Assembly (NCBI GenBank): GCA_030819375.1
Contig: GCA_030819375.1_4699.1
Origin: a phage
Length of the DNA: 38,456 nt
Reading direction: 5' to 3' (one strand)
The notes beneath the pieces are model-generated. The model searched no databases, had not been told where the DNA came from, and saw nothing but the letters and a program-made list of their open reading frames with translations. The position numbers and the translations under genes are program-made. Within the stretch, counting starts at the first letter, position 1, and each line of letters begins with the position of its first letter. This document shows, piece by piece, positions 3,233-31,265 of this stretch.

Positions 3233-5860
3233 ATGAAAGATTTATACGAAACCCAACTCATGTTAGAGGAAGAGATGTTCTCTGGTGGTATCCGTCGCTT
3301 TGAAGCGGACCAACAACGCCAGATTGCATCCGGTAATGAATCAGACACGGCATGGAATCGCCGCCTATTGTCTGAGTTAATCGCACCTATGGCTGAAGGT
3401 ATTCAGGCATACAAGGAAGAGTATGAAGGTAAAAGAGGCCGTGCACCGCGTGCATTAGCTTTCATTAACTGCGTAGAAAACGAAGTGGCAGCATATATCA
3501 CGATGAAAATCGTTATGGATATGCTGAACACGGATGTAACCTTGCAGGCTATAGCCATGAATGTAGCTGACCGCATTGAGGACCAAGTACGTTTTAGCAA
3601 GCTGGAAGGTCACGCCGCCAAATACTTTGAGAAAGTTAAGAAGTCACTTAAGGCAAGTAAGACTAAATCATATCGCCATGCGCACAACGTAGCGGTCGTG
3701 GCTGAGAAGTCAGTAGCTGACCGTGACGCTGATTTCTCTCGCTGGGAGGCGTGGCCTAAAGATACCTTGCTACAAATCGGGATGACCTTGCTAGAAATAC
3801 TGGAAAATAGTGTATTCTTCAATGGTCAGCCTGTCTTTCTTCGCACCTTGCGCACTAATGGTGGCAAGCATGGCGTTTACTACTTACAGACTAGCGAACA
3901 CGTGGGTGAATGGATAACTGCATTTAAAGAGCACGTAGCTCAGCTGAGCCCAGCCTATGCGCCTTGCGTGATTCCTCCTCGTCCGTGGGTGTCACCTTTT
4001 AATGGCGGTTTTCACACTGAGAAGGTGGCAAGCCGTATTCGTCTGGTTAAAGGTAACCGCGAGCACGTCCGCAAGCTGACCAAAAAGCAAATGCCAGCGG
4101 TTTACAAGGCTGTTAACGCCTTACAAGCTACTAAGTGGCAGGTTAACAAGGAAGTATTGCAGGTAGTAGAAGATGTTATTCGTCTAGACCTCGGTTATGG
4201 TGTACCTTCCTTTAAGCCGCTCATTGACCGCGAGAACAAACCAGCTAACCCTGTTCCTCTTGAGTTCCAGCACCTGCGAGGCCGTGAACTTAAAGAGATG
4301 CTAACGCCGGAACAATGGCAAGCCTTCATCCACTGGAAAGGTGAATGTACCAAGCTGTATGCCGCTGAAACTAAGCGCGGCAGCAAGTCGGCGGCAACCT
4401 TTCGCATGGTCGGGCAGGCCCGTAAATACAGCCAGTTTGACGCAATATACTTCGTGTATGCACTGGACAGCCGCTCACGCGTTTATGCGCAATCTAGCAC
4501 ACTCTCACCGCAATCAAATGACTTAGGCAAGGCTTTACTACGCTTTACCGAAGGGCAAACCATAAACAGCACTGAGGCGCTTAAGTGGTTTTTGGTGAAC
4601 GGGGCAAATAACTGGGGCTGGGATAAGAAAACTTTTGACGTGCGTACCGCTAACGTGCTGGATGGCGAATTTCAAGACATGTGCCGCGACATTGCAGCCG
4701 ACCCGCTGACCTTCACTCAATGGGTAAATGCTGATTCCCCTTATGGCTTCCTTGCATGGTGCTTTGAATATGCGCGTTATCTGGATGCACTGGACGAAGG
4801 AACGCAAGACCAATTCATGACGCACCTACCCGTCCATCAAGATGGGAGTTGCTCTGGTATCCAGCACTATAGCGCGATGTTACGCGATGAAGTAGGTGCG
4901 AAAGCAGTAAACCTTAAGCCTTCTGACTCCCCTCAAGATATTTATGGCGCGGTTGCGCAGGTTGTTATCCAGAAGAATTACGCCTACATGAATGCAGACG
5001 ATGCAGTGACTTTCACATCCGGAAGCGTCACACTTGCAGGTGCAGAACTGCGTAGCATGGCTAGTGTGTGGGATATGATAGGAATCACTCGCGGCCTGAC
5101 CAAAAAGCCCGTAATGACCCTACCTTATGGCAGCGCACGTCTAACCTGCCGTGAGTCAGTGATTGATTATATCGTTGATTTAGAAGAAAAAGAGGCCCAA
5201 CGAGCTATTGCGGAAGGGCGTACCGCCAATCCTGTACATCCTTTTGATAATGGCCGTAAGGACAGCCTGACACCTGGCGCAGCTTATAACTATATGACAG
5301 CTTTAATCTGGCCTTCTATTTCGGAAGTGGTTAAAGCTCCTATAGTGGCAATGAAAATGATTCGTCAGCTTGCCCGTTTCGCAGCTAAAAGGAATGTAGG
5401 CTTAGAGTATACCTTGCCTACTGGCTTCATCTTGCAACAAAAGATAATGGCGACAGATATGCTCCGCGTATCTACTTGCTTGATGGGAGAAATCAAGATG
5501 AGTCTACAGATTGAAACGGACGTAGTGGATGAAACGGCTATGATGGGCGCTGCTGCTCCTAACTTTGTGCATGGTCATGATGCCAGCCACCTTATCTTAA
5601 CAGTCTGCGACCTTGTTGATAAAGGGATTACATCTATCGCAGTCATTCATGATTCTTTCGGTACTCACGCAGGTCGTACAGCCGATCTACGTGATAGTCT
5701 AAGGGCAGAAATGGTGAAGATGTATCAAGGCCGTAATGCATTGCAAAGCCTGCTAGATGAGCACGAAGAACGCTGGTTAGTTGATACTGGAATCCAAGTG
5801 CCAGAGCAAGGAGAGTTTGACCTTAACGAAATCTTAGTATCTGACTATTGCTTCGCATAA
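3233..5860 (+). CDS. Single-subunit DNA-dependent RNA polymerase (T7 gene 1 family), 875 aa
   Basis: Length and C-terminal ...[13 protein letters not shown] resemble the T7 RNAP terminus (recalled ...NLRDILESDFAFA); conserved palm motifs; matching promoters throughout the window. Confidence 0.97.
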
Positions 5861-5868
5861 TATTAATA

Positions 5869-5899
5869 GGCCATTCCTTCGGGAGTGGCCTTTTCTTTT
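5869..5899 (+). terminator. Intrinsic terminator after the RNAP gene
   Basis: 9-bp GC-rich stem ggccattcc/ggagtggcc with UUCG tetraloop, followed by TTTTCTTTT. Confidence 0.8.
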
Positions 5900-5935
5900 A
5901 CCTACTACCGGTAAAAAATTTCATTAACATAAAGT

Positions 5936-5951
5936 GTCTCACATGTGAGAC
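5936..5951. repeat. GTCTCACATGTGAGAC palindromic hairpin element (copy 1)
   Basis: Perfect 16-bp palindrome immediately upstream of the promoter at 5954. Confidence 0.8.
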
Positions 5952-5953
5952 TT

Positions 5954-5976
5954 ATTTACCGGACACTATAGGATAG
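5954..5976 (+). promoter_or_regulatory. Phage-RNAP promoter (ATTTACCGGACACTATAGG)
   Basis: Matches the recurring consensus; predicted +1 G at 5971. Confidence 0.75.
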
Positions 5977-6117
5977 CCGTCGGAGACGGGAAAGAAAGGG
6001 AAGATAAAGGATATAAAAGGAAGTAATAGGTATTAAAGGTTATATAGGTTATCTAGGAATACCTATTACCTTCTTCCTTCCTCTTATTACCACTTAGAGG
6101 AAGGGCAGATCTAGGTT

Positions 6118-6133
6118 GTCTCACATGTGAGAC
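6118..6133. repeat. GTCTCACATGTGAGAC palindromic hairpin element (copy 2)
   Basis: Perfect 16-bp palindrome immediately upstream of the promoter-like sequence at 6139. Confidence 0.8.
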
Positions 6134-6138
6134 TTCGT

Positions 6139-6161
6139 ATTTACCGGACAGTATAGATAAG
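6139..6161 (+). promoter_or_regulatory. Variant phage promoter-like sequence (ATTTACCGGACAGTATAGATA)
   Basis: Consensus with C-to-G change in the CACTATA core; arranged in tandem with 5954 like the paired promoters at the T7 primary origin. Confidence 0.45.
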
Positions 6162-6186
6162 ACTAACTTACTTTGGAGATTTAACC

Positions 6187-6264
6187 ATGCGTAACTTTGA
6201 GAAGATGACCCGTAAAGCTAACCGTTTGACATGGAAGAAGGGCAGAAGAAAGGCAAGAAGTTGA
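6187..6264 (+). CDS. Small basic peptide (25 aa, MRNFEKMTRKANRLTWKKGRRKARS), T7 gene 1.1-like position
   Basis: GGAGA RBS 7 nt upstream of ATG 6187; below ORF-track cutoff; lies between the tandem promoters and the primase gene. Confidence 0.3.
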   Translation: MRNFEKMTRKANRLTWKKGRRKARS

Positions 6265-6284
6265 ATGCGTGGGAGTTCTAAGTT

Positions 6285-8273
6285 ATGGCTATTATTCAGA
6301 ATGTACCGTGTCCTGCTTGCCAAAAGAACGGACATGATATTACTGGCAATCATTTAATGATCTTTGACGACGGGGCAGGATACTGTAATCGTGGTCACTT
6401 CCATGATAACGGTAAACCTTATTACCACAAGCCGGAAGGTGGCATCGAGATAACCGAGTTACCTATTACTGGCAATATCAAATATACACCTTCTCAATTC
6501 AAAGAAATGGAGAAGGAAGGGAAGATAAGCGACCCTAAATTACGTGCCATCGCACTAGGTGGTATGCGTATGAAAGACCGTTGGGAGGTCATGAATGAGC
6601 AAGAAAGGGCAGACCAAGAAGCAGAGTGGAAACTTGATGTTGAATGGTTCCTCACGCTTAAGCGTAAGAACCTTGTTTCCCGACACATTCGCGGTGACAT
6701 TTGCGCATTGTATGATGTACGTGTCGGACACGATGAAGAGGGTAGAGTCACGCGGCATTACTATCCACGCTTCGAGCAAGGTGAGCTAGTAGGAGCTAAG
6801 TGTCGCACATTACCTAAAGACTTTAAGTTTGGTCATTTAGGTAAACTCTTTGGTATGCAAGATCTTTTCGGGATGAATACTTTGTCTCACGTGTTAGACA
6901 GGGGAAGACGAAAGGATTGCTTGCTTATTGTGGGTGGGGAACTGGATGCGCTAGCAGCGCAGCAGATGCTCCTTGATTCTGCCAAGGGTACTAAGTGGGA
7001 AGGTCAACCTTACCATGTATGGTCTGTTAACAAAGGGGAGTCTTGCCTTGAAGAGATTGTACAGAACCGTGAACACATCGCCCAATTCAAGAAGATTATT
7101 TGGGGCTTCGATGGGGATGAGGTAGGGCAGAAGCAGAATCAGCAAGCGGCTCGCCTGTTTCCTGGTAAATCCTATATCCTTGAATACCCCTCTGGTTGCA
7201 AAGATGCTAACAAGGCATTGATGGCTGGCAAGGCTAAAGAATTTGTAGATGCATGGTTTAATGCCAAGTCATCTGATGAAGTCTTTGGTAGCCAGATTAA
7301 ATCTATCGCATCTCAAAGGGATAAGCTCAAGGCTGCACGTCCAGAGCAAGGGTTATCATGGCCTTGGCCTAAGCTGAACAAGGTAACGCTAGGTATTCGT
7401 AAGAACCAGCTTATCATTGTAGGTGCAGGCTCTGGTGTAGGTAAGACTGAGTTCCTTCGCGAAGTGGTTAAGCACCTCATTGAAGAACACGGTGAATCTG
7501 TAGGCATCATTTCTACAGAAGACCCAATGGTCAAGGTGTCCCGTGCTTTTATCGGCAAGTGGATTGATAAGCGTATTGAGTTACCGCCAACCAACGATCC
7601 GAAAGAAGACGGATACCGTGAGGTGTTCGACTACACCGAGGAAGAAGCTAACGCTGCCATTGATTATGTGGCTGATACAGGGAAGCTGTTTGTAGCTGAC
7701 CTAGAGGGTGACTATTCTATGGAGAAGGTAGAGCAAACTTGCCTAGAGTTTGAGGCTATGGGCATTTCTAATATCATCATTGATAACTTAACGGGGATTA
7801 AATTAGATGAGCGTGCTTTTGGTGGGAAGGTTGGTGCACTTGATGAATGCGTCAAGCGGATTGGTACTATCAAAGACAGACATGCAGTTACTATATTCCT
7901 TGTATCACACCTTACACGTCCTCCGGCAAACCGTACCCAACACGAAGAAGGTGGCGAGGTTATCCTTTCTGACTTCCGAGGCTCAGGGGCTATCGGATTC
8001 TGGGCATCTTACGCCTTGGGGATTGAGCGTAACACAAGAGCTGAAACGCTTGATGAAAGAACTACCACGTACATCTCATGTGTCAAAGACCGCGACCAAG
8101 GTATCTACACCGGAACCAAGATCATGCTTAAGGGTGACATTCAAACCGGACGTTTGAGAGAACCTCAAGCCCGTACTAGGTCATTTGACACAGGCGAAGC
8201 AAGGCAACAAGAAGTGCCTGATTTACCGGACACTATAGAAGAGACTAACTTCGATGAAGAAAGTGAGTTTTGA
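6285..8273 (+). CDS. DNA primase/helicase (T7 gp4-like), 662 aa
   Basis: N-terminal Cys4 zinc ribbon (CPACQ...CNRGH), Walker A GAGSGVGKT, acidic C-terminus ending ...FDEESEF. Confidence 0.95.
   Translation: MAIIQNVPCPACQKNGHDITGNHLMIFDDGAGYCNRGHFHDNGKPYYHKPEGGIEITELPITGNIKYTPSQFKEMEKEGKISDPKLRAIALGGMRMKDRWEVMNEQERADQEAEWKLDVEWFLTLKRKNLVSRHIRGDICALYDVRVGHDEEGRVTRHYYPRFEQGELVGAKCRTLPKDFKFGHLGKLFGMQDLFGMNTLSHVLDRGRRKDCLLIVGGELDALAAQQMLLDSAKGTKWEGQPYHVWSVNKGESCLEEIVQNREHIAQFKKIIWGFDGDEVGQKQNQQAARLFPGKSYILEYPSGCKDANKALMAGKAKEFVDAWFNAKSSDEVFGSQIKSIASQRDKLKAARPEQGLSWPWPKLNKVTLGIRKNQLIIVGAGSGVGKTEFLREVVKHLIEEHGESVGIISTEDPMVKVSRAFIGKWIDKRIELPPTNDPKEDGYREVFDYTEEEANAAIDYVADTGKLFVADLEGDYSMEKVEQTCLEFEAMGISNIIIDNLTGIKLDERAFGGKVGALDECVKRIGTIKDRHAVTIFLVSHLTRPPANRTQHEEGGEVILSDFRGSGAIGFWASYALGIERNTRAETLDERTTTYISCVKDRDQGIYTGTKIMLKGDIQTGRLREPQARTRSFDTGEARQQEVPDLPDTIEETNFDEESEF
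8221..8243 (+). promoter_or_regulatory. Phage promoter embedded in the 3' end of the primase/helicase gene
   Basis: ATTTACCGGACACTATAGAAGAG; +1 G at 8238; encodes DLPDTIEE in frame. Confidence 0.65.
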
Positions 8274-8288
8274 TTAGTGTATTTATCA

Positions 8289-8320
8289 GGGCTTGTCTCA
8301 CATGTGAGACAGGCTCTTAT
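8289..8320 (+). terminator. Hairpin with GTCTCACATGTGAGAC core (copy 3), terminator or processing site
   Basis: 18-bp perfect palindrome 8294-8311 inside a ~12-bp stem with a G-U pair, followed by a weak T-run. Confidence 0.5.
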
Positions 8321-8349
8321 TAAGTACATTAAATAACTGGATATTGATT

Positions 8350-9262: not shown

Positions 9263-9428
9263 ACATAGTCTTAAAATGTTCGATGGTCATGAAGACCTGC
9301 AAGCCAAGATTACTAACCAAGCCTTCCTGTTCGCACAGGTAACTATGGCTGAGGCCAAGAAGAATAGTCTCACTCGTGAACAGGTTATCAAGGAAAGTGA
9401 AGTGAAACGTAAGATTCGCAGTCGATAA
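9252..9428 (+). CDS. Small hypothetical protein (58 aa), below ORF-track cutoff
   Basis: ATG 9252 overlaps the end of the upstream gene; ORF ends 7 nt before the terminator hairpin; no strong RBS. Confidence 0.3.
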   Translation: MQNKHSLKMFDGHEDLQAKITNQAFLFAQVTMAEAKKNSLTREQVIKESEVKRKIRSR

Positions 9429-9434
9429 GTCAAG

Positions 9435-9466
9435 GGTTGTCTCACGTGTGAGACAGCCTTTTATCA
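9435..9466 (+). terminator. Intrinsic terminator-like hairpin with GTCTCACGTGTGAGAC core (copy 4)
   Basis: Stem ggttgtctca/tgagacagcc (10 bp, one G-U), loop CGTG, followed by TTTTATCAT. Confidence 0.65.
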
Positions 9467-9488
9467 TATTGATTGGAGGATTAACTTT

Positions 9489-12782: not shown

Positions 12783-12791
12783 GTTATACTC

Positions 12792-12813
12792 AAGGTCACT
12801 TACGAGTGGCCTT
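12792..12813 (+). other. Hairpin (stem aaggtcact/agtggcctt, loop UACG) with the same flanks as the 31213 element
   Basis: ttatactcaagg-[hairpin]-cctttatga framework shared with 31204-31246. Confidence 0.35.
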
Positions 12814-12840
12814 TATGAATAACTTAACTAAGGAAATATT

Positions 12841-13101: not shown

Positions 13102-13123
13102 TTTACTGGACACTATAGAAGGA
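13101..13123 (+). promoter_or_regulatory. Phage-RNAP promoter (ATTTACTGGACACTATAGAAGGA)
   Basis: Consensus copy overlapping the stop codon of the upstream gene; +1 G at 13118. Confidence 0.8.
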
Positions 13124-13187
13124 AAGCCTAGACAATCTAGGTTTATAAGGTAGTATAGGTAATTAAGTAAATATAGGAGAGATAAAT

Positions 13188-13565: not shown

Positions 13566-13586
13566 TTACTGGACACTATAGAACAA
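13565..13586 (+). promoter_or_regulatory. Phage-RNAP promoter (AATTACTGGACACTATAGAACA)
   Basis: Consensus copy overlapping the stop of the upstream gene; +1 G at 13581. Confidence 0.7.
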
Positions 13587-28259: not shown

Positions 28260-31202
28260 ATGGCAATTGAACGTCAAGCTGTACAAGGTTTAGAAAGAGT
28301 ACAGTCAAGGGGTGCGCCAATGCCTATGTCTTTCACACCACGACAAGTGAGTATCTCAGGGGGCGCTGATGCCTCCGGTAGTAGATTTTTGGAAGACTTA
28401 GTAAACGCCGCAAGTAGTGTGGCTGATGTCACTACTGCTATCCTTAATCAGCAAGTAGAAGACGATAAGGTTCGCCAGATGGATAGGGCTTTGTCTGGCA
28501 TGATGCCTTCTGAGGATGCCACGGTAGGCGGTGCTCGTGCTCATATGCTGGTTAGTTTACAAAATGATGTAATCGCACAGACAACTGCGCTACAAGCAGA
28601 AGCACAGCGATTTCAAGGTAGTGACGAGGATTGGGAAAACTATGTAGTTCAATCTCGTAATGAGGTACAAAATAGGTTATGGCAAAGTTATCCAGAGCTT
28701 CGTGGTGACAAAGATTCTATGAGGCTTGTCACTAACGCGTTCATGGAGCAGCAACCTAGAATTACTGCAACTAGAGCAGAGGCTAAACTTCGTCAAGAAG
28801 AAGAAGCACGAATGCAATCTATGCAGTCTCGTATTATCATGGCTACAAGGGACGTAGCGCCAGATGCCACTGGTGCAGCTCTTATCCAGCTACAAAAAGA
28901 AGCACTGGCGATGGGTCTTAGTAAACCTGAGTTTGATCAAATGGTTGCTAAGATTGCATCTGAAAGAGCGGCAGTAGGAGATGATAGTCTTATTCAGGGA
29001 ACCAAGGCATTGGTGGATGATAAGGGTGTCTCTTTGTATGACCGTGTTGGTGCTTTGCAAACTGGAGAAATTCAAGCTAACAGAACTTGGGCTGCTCAGA
29101 ATCAGGTTGCCCTCTTCGAGAAGAAAGATGCAGCTATAAAGGCATTCGATGCAGGGCAACTTACTCGCGAAGAGTTACTTCAGGTGATGCAGAATCACAA
29201 TGAATTGACTGGTGGCACTGCTTGGTCTGATAGCGAGATCAAGGCTATCTTCGATAGGCAAGCTAAGGTTAATGCAGAGAAAGCAAAGCTAGAAGATCTT
29301 ATTGCACGAGGTGAATCTGGGTCGCCTTTAGGCTTACAGGACATTAGTAAGGATGACAGAAAGGCATATGCTGAAGCCTTAGTTAGTACCTACACTAAGC
29401 TGGCAGAAGATGAAATTGCCCGTACTGGTGCAACGGGAGAACAGGCTGAAGCTATTCGCGGTAGGTATGAGCAGATGCGTTATCTTAAATTGGGTCAACA
29501 GCTTATTGAAGACCCGATCATTAAGGAAAGGTATTCGTCGCTTATGCAGCTATCCTCTGCCAACCTCAAGGATATGAATGTTGAACCTGAAGCACTGCAA
29601 ACTATCATGCGAGCACGTGATTCTATTCCAGAGGATGCACGTCGTGCTGTTATGGGAGACAAAGAATATGCCTTTGTTGAGAACTATGACTTAGCAACTC
29701 GCATGGGGTATAACACAGGTCAAGCTATTGAGTTTGCACAGAATGCCTCTCGCGGCGAGAAATTACAAGGTTCTGTGCTCAAAGAACTTAATGATGATGT
29801 AGATGGAGTAGTTAGTGACATTGCAGGAGGCAGCTGGCTCACTTTTGGTGATAACATGAGTGAAATGGGACGTGACATTATGATGGAGGAGGCAAGTACA
29901 ATTGCTAGAGCAATGAAGGTTGCAGGCCATAATAATGACACTATTAAGCGTCACCTTAAATCCTACCTTACAAGCCAGTATACACAATTATCAGAAGGTT
30001 TCTTTACTCAAGGTGTTCTTGTAAAAGGAGACATTCGTACGTTAGGAGATACTATAGGAGTAAACCAAGGAGACGTCCCAATTACTCTCCGTCAGTACCT
30101 AGATAATAACAAACAAGCCCTGCTAGATGCATCAGGTGGGTTAGAGGAAGGCGACCTATATTTTGATGTAGATGCGAAGCGCGGCCTCTTTACTATACGT
30201 GCAGGCTCTGGTCGTGTGCCTGTTACACAGGCAATGCCTTTGTCTGAAATCAAAGGGCAATCCTTGCTTAAGCAACGGTATAATGCAGAGGTTAAAGCAC
30301 GTGATGAAGGGCGTAAGAACTTTGAAGCACAACAAATGCGAATGTGGGGCGCAGGTGGCTACCAAGCACAACCACCTGCAAAGACTACAGCCAAAACTGT
30401 AGGCTCACGTGGGATTGCTGACTTCTTAATGTCACCTGCCTTTGCATCAGGCGAGAATCTACCAGCAAACTTTGAGTTCGGATATAAGAGAAATAATATG
30501 GACTTCTACAATTATGTAGCCAAGATGGAGAATAATACCAATGTAGGTTTTGACCGAGTAGCTGGTGTTTATACACCATACAAAGATGCACATGGTCAGT
30601 CTGTAGGGTACGGTCACTTCCTTACTACTGAAGAGAAGAAGAACGGATACATTATGATTGGTACAGAGAAAGTGCCATTCACTCCGGGACAATCTCAATT
30701 AACACCAGAACGAGCCATGCGCCTTCTACAGCAAGACTTGAAGAGTCATGTGCCAAGTACTTCAGGATGGGCTGTTCCCTTCGAAGAGATGCACCCAGGT
30801 GTTCAGCGTGGCCTTATGGACTTGTCCTATAATTTAGGAAAAGGCGGGATCCAGAATGCTCCTAAGGCATACGCTGCATTTAAGGCTGGCAAGTTTACTG
30901 ATGGCTTCATCGAGATGCTATCTACTGCATCTACTGAAGGCAAGCGCAGCACTGGATTGTTAGTTCGTAGGGCGGAAGCTTATAACCTTGCACAGAGTGG
31001 TGGTGCTATCCCTAAGATTAGTGAAGTGGAGACACGAGCAGATGGATCTATGTATGTGAAGTTTGCAGGACAGATGTCAGAGGCTTTCGTAAATAAATCA
31101 ATCTACAATCAGATTGGTAAGGATGGGTGGATGCAAGTGTATCCTCCAAAGCAAGGTGCACTTGCACCTAACACTCAGATTGGTAGAATCAAACTGAGCT
31201 AG
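28260..31202 (+). CDS. Internal virion (ejection) protein with C-terminal lysozyme-like domain, 980 aa
   Basis: Residues ~740-910: YKDAHGQSVGYGH...LTPERAMRLLQQDL...LMDLSYNLGKGG...LLVRRAEAYNL resembles GH24 phage lysozymes. Confidence 0.9.
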   Translation: MAIERQAVQGLERVQSRGAPMPMSFTPRQVSISGGADASGSRFLEDLVNAASSVADVTTAILNQQVEDDKVRQMDRALSGMMPSEDATVGGARAHMLVSLQNDVIAQTTALQAEAQRFQGSDEDWENYVVQSRNEVQNRLWQSYPELRGDKDSMRLVTNAFMEQQPRITATRAEAKLRQEEEARMQSMQSRIIMATRDVAPDATGAALIQLQKEALAMGLSKPEFDQMVAKIASERAAVGDDSLIQGTKALVDDKGVSLYDRVGALQTGEIQANRTWAAQNQVALFEKKDAAIKAFDAGQLTREELLQVMQNHNELTGGTAWSDSEIKAIFDRQAKVNAEKAKLEDLIARGESGSPLGLQDISKDDRKAYAEALVSTYTKLAEDEIARTGATGEQAEAIRGRYEQMRYLKLGQQLIEDPIIKERYSSLMQLSSANLKDMNVEPEALQTIMRARDSIPEDARRAVMGDKEYAFVENYDLATRMGYNTGQAIEFAQNASRGEKLQGSVLKELNDDVDGVVSDIAGGSWLTFGDNMSEMGRDIMMEEASTIARAMKVAGHNNDTIKRHLKSYLTSQYTQLSEGFFTQGVLVKGDIRTLGDTIGVNQGDVPITLRQYLDNNKQALLDASGGLEEGDLYFDVDAKRGLFTIRAGSGRVPVTQAMPLSEIKGQSLLKQRYNAEVKARDEGRKNFEAQQMRMWGAGGYQAQPPAKTTAKTVGSRGIADFLMSPAFASGENLPANFEFGYKRNNMDFYNYVAKMENNTNVGFDRVAGVYTPYKDAHGQSVGYGHFLTTEEKKNGYIMIGTEKVPFTPGQSQLTPERAMRLLQQDLKSHVPSTSGWAVPFEEMHPGVQRGLMDLSYNLGKGGIQNAPKAYAAFKAGKFTDGFIEMLSTASTEGKRSTGLLVRRAEAYNLAQSGGAIPKISEVETRADGSMYVKFAGQMSEAFVNKSIYNQIGKDGWMQVYPPKQGALAPNTQIGRIKLS

Positions 31203-31212
31203 TGTTATACTC

Positions 31213-31246
31213 AAGGTTTGTCTCACATGTGAGACATGCCTTTATG
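31213..31246 (+). terminator. Hairpin with GTCTCACATGTGAGAC core (copy 6), terminator or processing site
   Basis: Stem ggtttgtctca/tgagacatgcc, loop CATG, then TTTATGA; directly after the stop at 31202. Confidence 0.5.
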
Positions 31247-31265
31247 ACATTAATTAGGAGGTAAC

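Follow-up and report, generated by a model that had tools for sequence, protein, structure and literature searches.

The window is a stretch of phage DNA of 38,456 nucleotides (NCBI GenBank assembly GCA_030819375.1, contig GCA_030819375.1_4699.1), and the region described here is the short intergenic segment between its single-subunit RNA polymerase (RNAP) gene and its primase/helicase gene (Table 1). The 1.1 kb around this region match 93 phage records, the best of which belong to Vectrevirus (phage 6949, 96.8%; K1-5, 94.7%), and the window is a Vectrevirus genome (K1-5/K1E-like, SP6 supergroup). In K1-5 coordinates, the region is located about 6 kb into a genome of ∼44.4 kb, ∼14% from the left end. 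The counterpart of the upstream gene is annotated as RNAP in relatives with 95 to 97% identity, and the primase/helicase annotation of the downstream flank is also found in the best-matching Vectrevirus records. In the SP6/K1-5 group, the segment corresponds to the intergenic control region that T7 has between gene 1 and gene 1.1. Genomes 95 to 97% identical to it have been public since 2004, its promoters are easily recognized, and the analogy with T7 is obvious. We regard the region as ordinary in kind, with a periodic AGG array as its one undescribed element.

Table 1. Features of the region between the RNAP and primase/helicase genes, in window coordinates
Feature	Positions	Strand	Basis or remark
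Single-subunit phage RNA polymerase gene (T7 gene 1 homologue)	3233..5860	+	phrog_414, E value 2.6e-287
Intrinsic-terminator-type hairpin, AGGCCATTCCTTCGGGAGTGGCCT, then T run	5868..5898	+	terminator scan; fold z −5.9
Palindrome copy 1, GTCTCACATGTGAGAC	5936..5951		weak hairpin alone, z −0.9
Phage promoter P1, consensus, ATTTACCGGACACTATAG	5954..5971	+	leftmost in window; inferred +1, G5971
P1-transcript 5′ stem-loop, CCGTC-GGA-GACGG	5977..5989	+	covariation
Seven AGG(T/A)(A/T) units	5997..6057	+	starts at 5997, 6008, 6018, 6028, 6037, 6046, and 6055; nearly C-free
Long imperfect hairpin	6017..6075	+	23 nt between arms; GC-corrected z −3.2, fifth strongest in window
Third hairpin, CCTTCCTCT/AGAGGAAGG	6076..6104	+	folding
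Palindrome copy 2, GTCTCACATGTGAGAC	6118..6133		invariant in 14 Vectrevirus sequences
Phage promoter P2, variant, ATTTACCGGACAGTATAG	6139..6156	+	C to G at −5; inferred +1, G6156
GGAG ribosome-binding site and truncated, frameshifted gene 8 (T7 gene 1.1 homologue)	6175..6264	+	phrog_2490
Primase/helicase gene (T7 gene 4 homologue)	6285..8273	+	phrog_239, E value 2.5e-187

A sequence-only reading of this DNA had described a terminator after the RNAP gene, two tandem phage promoters (at 5954 and, as a variant, at 6139), a palindrome ahead of each promoter, and, between them, a segment of ∼145 bp that is first purine rich and then pyrimidine rich and contains a perfect 10-bp inverted repeat. All of these elements were recovered. 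The terminator has a GC-rich 10-bp stem (5868 to 5891) followed by TTTCTTTT, both promoters lie where they had been placed and occur far beyond chance expectation, a palindrome precedes each of them, the segment between them measures 146 bp (5972 to 6117), and the inverted repeat, TAATAGGTAT (6024 to 6033) and ATACCTATTA (6059 to 6068), is exact.

The promoter 16-mer has nine matches in the window (0.28 expected), none of them left of 5956; the consensus copy at 5956 to 5971 and the variant at 6141 to 6156 are the two leftmost and, at the sequence level, form a promoter pair pointing rightward, as in the T7 origin. The +1 of P1 is one that we assign by analogy with the SP6 promoter. Only 30 nt (70% AT) separate the P2 +1 from the gene 8 ATG, and a scan of 5700 to 6400 for sigma-70 promoters returned none. 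Across relatives, the sequences of P1 and P2 covary with the promoter type of the lineage, and lineages from IMG/VR and metagenomes carry the pairs GTGTTGCACTATAG/GTGTTGCCCTATAG, GGGCGGACTATAG (twice), and GTGGCGAGTATAG/GTGGCTAGTATAG. Because the two copies have changed together in each such lineage, this pattern argues that both are working promoters, an activity that is predicted. The downstream promoter of the Vectrevirus, SP6, and Klebsiella lineages differs from its upstream partner at a single core position (to CAGTATAG in Vectrevirus and to CACTATTG in the SP6 and Klebsiella clades). The promoters of the window as a whole fall into two classes, TTACCGG (the three leftmost, at 5956, 6141, and 8223) and TTACTGG (the later ones, at 13103, 13566, 14712, 23072, and 38414), which recall the class II and class III promoters of T7.

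The palindrome occurs eight times in the window with at most two mismatches (0.03 expected), at 318, 5936, 6118, 6884, 8295, 9439, 14679, and 31220, and nine times in SP6 (L037), at 493, 6093, 6264, 7071, 8547, 9383, 14255, 17752, and 30569. It is old and syntenic, with the eight window copies matching eight of the nine SP6 copies, and the copy inside the primase coding sequence has the same codon offset in both genomes. At the place of copy 1, SP6 has GTCCAACGTGTTGGAC. The half-sites have changed together (GTCTCAC..GTGAGAC in Vectrevirus versus GTC(C/T)AAC..GTTGGAC in SP6 and lineages further away); a U·G is found at position 4/13 of the plus strand in the majority of SP6 copies, and the left-end copy is an exact reverse complement. 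The conserved core suggests that the palindrome may be recognized by a protein; no candidate binding protein was found, and the full-text literature that we searched makes no mention of the palindrome.

Long two-stem hairpins with internal loops, each capped by a copy of the palindrome, stand at three places directly after stop codons (8274 to 8332, 9425 to 9470, and 31200 to 31252). In their flanks (CAAGG...GCCUUUAUGA), these hairpins are similar to T7 RNase III sites; compensatory and G·U changes distinguish them from SP6. With GC correction, no structure in the window is stronger than the hairpins at 8274 to 8332 and 31200 to 31252. They are probably RNase III or 3′-stabilizer sites. A separate observation concerns the second copy in our region: ACTTAGAGGAAGGGCAGA (6092 to 6109), just 5′ of it, is 83% identical to a stretch of gene 8 (6229 to 6246), a pairing that is also visible in the SP6 sequence, and the unit of palindrome plus promoter repeats at a spacing of 182 to 185 bp. 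Together, this similarity and this spacing hint that the P1 unit might have arisen as a tandem duplicate of the P2/gene 8 unit.

The small basic ORF that had been noted downstream of P2 (6187 to 6264) is present, with the translation MRNFEKMTRKANRLTWKKGRRKARS*, but it is the remnant of a larger gene. Compared with all aligned relatives (K1-5, K1E, CrRp3, SP6, BP12B, and two Klebsiella phages), gene 8 of the window has lost one T, with a frameshift after codon 13, and 33 nt have been deleted, so its basic tail is an out-of-frame product. All 30 database matches listed for 6187 to 6284 are ∼30 bases longer, and the deletions are absent from the relatives aligned. Intact gp8 of K1-5 is 54% identical to T7 gp1.1 (E value 6e-12), and both belong to phrog_2490. 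Either gene 8 is dispensable or the window contains an assembly error.

Between the promoters, 73 nt with almost no C (5986 to 6058; 34 A, 21 G, 16 T, and 2 C) are followed by 39 nt with almost no G (6059 to 6097; 13 C, 17 T, 8 A, and 1 G). The 60-mer at 5970 to 6029 is the most purine rich of the window. Purine richness as a conserved R-loop signal was considered and set aside: it holds for Vectrevirus, and the SP6 region is not among the top 60-mers. The AT-rich region that had been compared with that of T7 exists, although it lies between the promoters (3′ of P1 and 5′ of P2) and not after both: the AT-richest intergenic 61-mer, 6001 to 6061, has 75.4% AT (top 0.2% of the window 61-mers; the T7 block has 78.7%).

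This block is built from the AGG array, whose seven units are spaced 11, 10, 10, 9, 9, and 9 nt apart and are called by TRF as repeats of period 9 to 10. A chain of seven AGG did not arise in any of 5,000 dinucleotide shuffles, and with the next best chain having four units, the array is unique in the window. SP6, BP12B, the Klebsiella and Proteus phages, and a metagenomic lineage (L034) carry five to eight copies at 8- to 12-nt spacing, and a more distant relative (L031) is down to three. Over 35 distinct sequences, the spacing is 9 nt (60 cases), 10 nt (56 cases), 11 nt (11 cases), or 8 nt (6 cases), and the unit reads approximately WWAWAGGTAAT, in which +4 is never G and C is very rare; the invariance of AGG is there by construction, since the units were aligned on it, and T and then A are preferred next. 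Repeats as at iteron-type origins are present; no cognate initiator was identified. The array is the only feature that we cannot place in any described system. A short TAGGTA-type run of three to four units (CTAGGTTTATAAGGTAGTATAGGTAATTAAG) is also found in the AT-rich leader of the promoter at 13103 (13119 to 13186) and is conserved in SP6 (L037; 12560 to 12625); it might perform the function of the array, whatever that is, at a second site.

The same order of elements (terminator hairpin, palindrome, P1, 5′ stem-loop, AGG array with inverted arm, palindrome, variant P2, and gene 1.1 homologue) is kept in Vectrevirus, Zindervirus, and the Klebsiella and Proteus phages and in IMG/VR and metagenome lineages that have other promoter sequences; the second palindrome is absent in some lineages. 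A comparison of 14 distinct Vectrevirus sequences shows no variation in the 3′ arm or palindrome 2 and a single variable position in P2. The region tolerates insertions. HNH endonuclease genes are found inside the array (L043, 1958 to 2398), after P2 (UAB_Phi78 and L047), and after gene 8 (BP12B and LL11); in individual records, such genes occupy 893 to 1303 in L007, 1004 to 1450 in L005, and 756 onward in L051. One sequence (L044) has a third promoter copy. In L043, the HNH gene stands in place of most of the array and the 3′ arm, and the genome of this phage nonetheless persists; the gene starts within the array, and the AGG periodicity carries on through its first codons.

Downstream of T7 gene 1 come phi1.1A (+1 at 5848), phi1.1B (+1 at 5923), 83 nt at 72% AT, and then gene 1.1; the two promoters flank the R1.1 hairpin. 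The best local alignment between the T7 and window intergenic regions, with a score reached by 1 of 500 shuffles, pairs T7 GAGTGGCCTTTATGATTGACCTTCTTCCGGTTAA, which runs from the 3′ half of R1.1 into phi1.1B, with window positions 5882 to 5915, which run from the 3′ half of the terminator hairpin toward P1 and lie just upstream of it. The 3′ half of this hairpin, which is kept in all relatives, and the next 25 nt thus align with the 3′ half of R1.1. The alignment places P1 opposite phi1.1B and the AGG array opposite the AT-rich core of T7, and on this reading, P1 would be the counterpart of phi1.1B and the array that of the core. Elsewhere in the window, after the DNA polymerase region, an intergenic hairpin (12783 to 12822, z −4.3) with a lower stem and an internal loop contains ACTCAAGGTCACTTACGAGTGGCCTTTATGA, which all but reproduces the upper stem and 3′ flank of T7 R1.1.

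The sequence-only reading had likened the architecture of the region to that of the T7 primary origin. The flanking genes, the paired promoters, the AT block, and the partial alignment bear this out, but the order of the elements does not. The position is that of the T7 origin, downstream of the RNAP gene and upstream of the gene 1.1 homologue, and on sequence grounds the region is a positional, and partly a sequence, homologue of phi1.1A/phi1.1B and the AT-rich region. In T7, phi1.1A and phi1.1B are the primary origins, a phage promoter is essential to every origin, and secondary origins can be used (PMC8373140). An A/T-rich block that is ∼60 bp long and located downstream of the promoter(s) is given as a feature of the T7 origin in PMC12839067, citing Saito 1980; the GGGTC site in this A/T-rich cluster is reportedly unused (PMC12839067). 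Plasmids with a T7 origin require inactivation of RNase H (PMC8373140).

Against this background, our preferred reading, to which we give a little less than an even chance, is that the phage RNAP begins to transcribe the replication genes in this region, which would serve in addition as a transcription-activated origin. We infer promoter use and every replication step; what was observed are the elements, their conservation, and the homology of the flanks with T7. Early transcription by the host RNAP would stop at the hairpin at 5868 to 5898, and the newly made phage RNAP would initiate both at P1, which no other phage promoter of the genome precedes, and at the presumably weaker variant P2; together, these promoters would drive gene 8 and the primase/helicase gene. 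As in T7, transcription from P1 and P2 would most likely activate the primary replication origin. The P1 transcript would enter the C-free block of 75% AT, and opening of this block would allow the RNA to serve as the primer of the rightward leading strand. The displaced plus strand with its AGGTA array could be the site at which the primase/helicase loads and leftward synthesis starts.

This last step has a stronger form, in which the AGGTA array is a dedicated origin element of the SP6 supergroup and provides primase/helicase recognition or loading sites on the strand displaced by transcription from P1. We consider it improbable; if it were true, one transcription event would yield both a rightward primer and a multisite platform for leftward starts. 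The zinc-binding region of the SP6-group primase (6285 to 6400; CPAC...FDDGAGYCNRGH), which is invariant in the window, SP6, and one Proteus phage, has an Ala at the position of T7 His33, and its fourth zinc ligand is probably His, not Cys. Since T7 His33 is reported to contact the cryptic C of GTC (PMC12839067), template specificity may differ in the SP6 group, and the Ala would be in keeping with recognition of a triplet different from GTC, such as the GTA within AGGTA. T7-type (G/T)(G/T)GTC sites are found in the region only at the palindrome edges (5934 to 5938 and 6116 to 6120). Neither AGGTA (11 plus and 8 minus to the left; 73 plus and 41 minus to the right) nor T7-type primase sites show a significant strand switch across the region, with left-hand counts too small in both cases.

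Several points count against the origin reading: no initiation signal was obtained, the order of elements is unlike that of T7, there are constraints at the RNA level, and L043 lacks most of the array. Over 16 kb, the cumulative GC skew rises monotonically with no extremum at 6 kb, and neither GC nor AT skew marks the region; such a rise is expected when all genes are on one strand, and the GC skew is therefore uninformative. No origin is annotated in the records of K1-5, K1E, SP6, LL11, Pm5460, and others examined. T7 can use secondary origins; an origin at this position, even if real, might be neither essential nor the only one. The full-text literature searched, which did not extend to Dobbins 2004 and Scholl 2004, contained no SP6-group origin or RNase III sites. 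Those two genome papers (of SP6 and K1-5, respectively) may discuss the two promoters and might already have proposed the region as an origin.

The RNA-level constraints count in favor of the leading rival, which we hold to be possible though rather unlikely. It states that the region serves gene expression alone: transcription of the replication genes would start at P1 and P2, the 146 nt form a structured 5′ leader in which a stabilizing 5′ stem-loop and long hairpins govern the stability, processing, or translation of the gene 8/primase mRNA, and replication begins elsewhere or at many promoters. The 5′ stem-loop covaries. In 10 distinct sequences from all lineages, every position of the stem pairs, and the third pair is G:C, A:U, C:G, or U:A, with the other four pairs and most of the loop invariant; none of 500 shuffles attained its covariation score, and the score collapses once the pairing partner is shifted. 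In an RNAalifold analysis of 18 sequences from four clades, it was the only helix retained. The phage promoter leaders at 13581 and 23087 also open with 5′ hairpins.

Downstream of the stem-loop, the inverted repeat extends to 18-nt arms (6017 to 6034 and 6058 to 6075; 89% complementarity) that form a near-continuous duplex of ∼17 bp with an apical helix. The array is repeated in part, and inverted, in the 3′ pyrimidine arm, and a long imperfect hairpin is therefore possible in every relative; because its pairing register differs between clades, RNAalifold keeps only the 5′ stem-loop, and the 18-sequence analysis made no case for covariation of the long hairpin, which is present in each sequence in a register that is not shared. 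A scan of 5400 to 6800 against Rfam 15 with E values up to 10 returned only weak matches that look like long hairpins (best, 20.6 bits; gathering threshold, 50). The plus-strand RNA folds better than the minus-strand RNA in 17 of 20 sequences and has more G·U pairs (∼3.1 versus 1.5), a mild sign of selection on the transcript, given that the sequences are not independent. As DNA, both strands fold equally well, and structure at the DNA level is therefore possible as well. The covarying stem-loop and the plus-strand bias are better read as RNA constraints, and a long self-pairing transcript would compete with R-loop formation, which would count against the origin reading. The shorter TAGGTA-type run in the 13103-promoter leader and in SP6 suggests a leader motif and not a single-copy origin element, and the lack of information in the GC skew also counts for the leader reading. 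What a leader alone does not explain is that two promoters are kept 185 bp apart in every lineage and that the AGG spacing stays at 9 to 10 nt while the pairing register shifts between clades. Known RNA-level roles for the motif also fit poorly: GGA, which a CsrA sponge would use, occurs in only 25% of the units, and past AGG the units are unlike a Shine-Dalgarno sponge, never having G at +4.

That the long hairpin at 6017 to 6075 is an RNase III processing site equivalent to T7 R1.1 is doubtful. It lies between the two promoters, as R1.1 lies between phi1.1A and phi1.1B, its duplex and apical helix would suit such a role, and it has a 10-mer, ACCTTCTTCC, in common with the 3′ side of R1.1 (a score reached by 5 of 500 shuffles). 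The phage also clearly uses T7-type hairpins, at 12783 to 12822, 8274 to 8332, and 31200 to 31252, which do carry T7-type RNase III features. These hairpins share the CAAGG...GCCUUUAUGA flanks and the two-stem, internal-loop shape, whereas 6017 to 6075 has neither the flanks (CAAGG...CCUUUAUGA in T7 R1.1, L011) nor two ∼10-bp helices around an internal loop. Moreover, the best intergenic match to R1.1 is the terminator hairpin upstream of P1, not 6017 to 6075, whose pairing register is not conserved between clades.

Least convincing, and also improbable, is the idea that a protein (a phage factor, for example, gp1.1, or the primase zinc finger) binds the AGGTA units and the inverted CCT copies of them as iterated sites, acting on double-stranded DNA, on a displaced single strand, or on RNA: the regular 9- to 10-nt spacing and the T-then-A preference after AGG in 35 distinct sequences, the uniqueness of the array in the window, its conservation while the hairpin register drifts, and the possibly different primase template specificity that goes with Ala at the His33 position (PMC12839067) would suit it, but no protein likely to bind them was identified, the AGGTA counts do not switch strand significantly from one side of the region to the other, the 9.6-bp period is off the helical repeat of B-DNA, and gp1.1 cannot be required because gene 8 of the window is broken.

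SP6/K1-5-group phages have been used in phage therapy directed at the K1 capsule and are the sources of the SP6 and K1E RNA polymerases. If the region is an origin, it would define a minimal cis element for engineering or rebooting genomes of this group, the design of promoter plus AT-rich block would be older than the split between the T7 and SP6 groups, and the periodic array, palindromes, and structured leader would offer a natural variant for testing the role of the AT-rich element. If it is not, it is a well-conserved and experimentally tractable regulatory leader of the primase/helicase gene. Its interest lies mostly in the conserved periodic array and in how directly the origin question can be tested.

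Among known systems, the iteron-type origins of plasmids and lambdoid phages likewise have regularly spaced short direct repeats, some of them inverted, in AT-rich DNA by replication genes. The units of the window differ in having only ∼5 conserved bases at a spacing of ∼9.6 bp inside a transcribed leader, and, unlike for iteron-type origins, we know of no initiator protein for them. R-loop-primed origins include that of ColE1 with its RNA II and the mitochondrial LSP/CSB region, which uses a T7-like RNAP, helicase, and polymerase. The window resembles them in having a promoter followed by a purine-rich nontemplate strand and differs in that this purine richness is marked only in Vectrevirus, is without G-runs, and is part of a transcript that can fold on itself.

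With T7 R1.1, the region has in common a hairpin between two promoters upstream of gene 1.1 and the shared 10-mer; the real relatives of R1.1 in the window are 5868 to 5915 and, much closer, 12783 to 12822, and the hairpin at 6017 to 6075 is without the flanks and internal-loop design of R1.1. From the T7 primary origin, the region differs in that its AT block lies between the promoters, is built from a periodic AGG(T/A) array with a partial inverted copy, and is without a T7-type GGGTC; in that a 16-bp palindrome precedes each promoter; and in that its R1.1-like hairpin has the look of a terminator and is located 5′ of the first promoter. It resembles the T7 primary origin in lying directly after the RNAP gene, ∼14 to 15% from the left end in both genomes, in having two rightward promoters and a block of ∼61 bp at 75 to 79% AT 3′ of a promoter, in being followed by a gp1.1 homologue, and in noncoding sequence that aligns in part.
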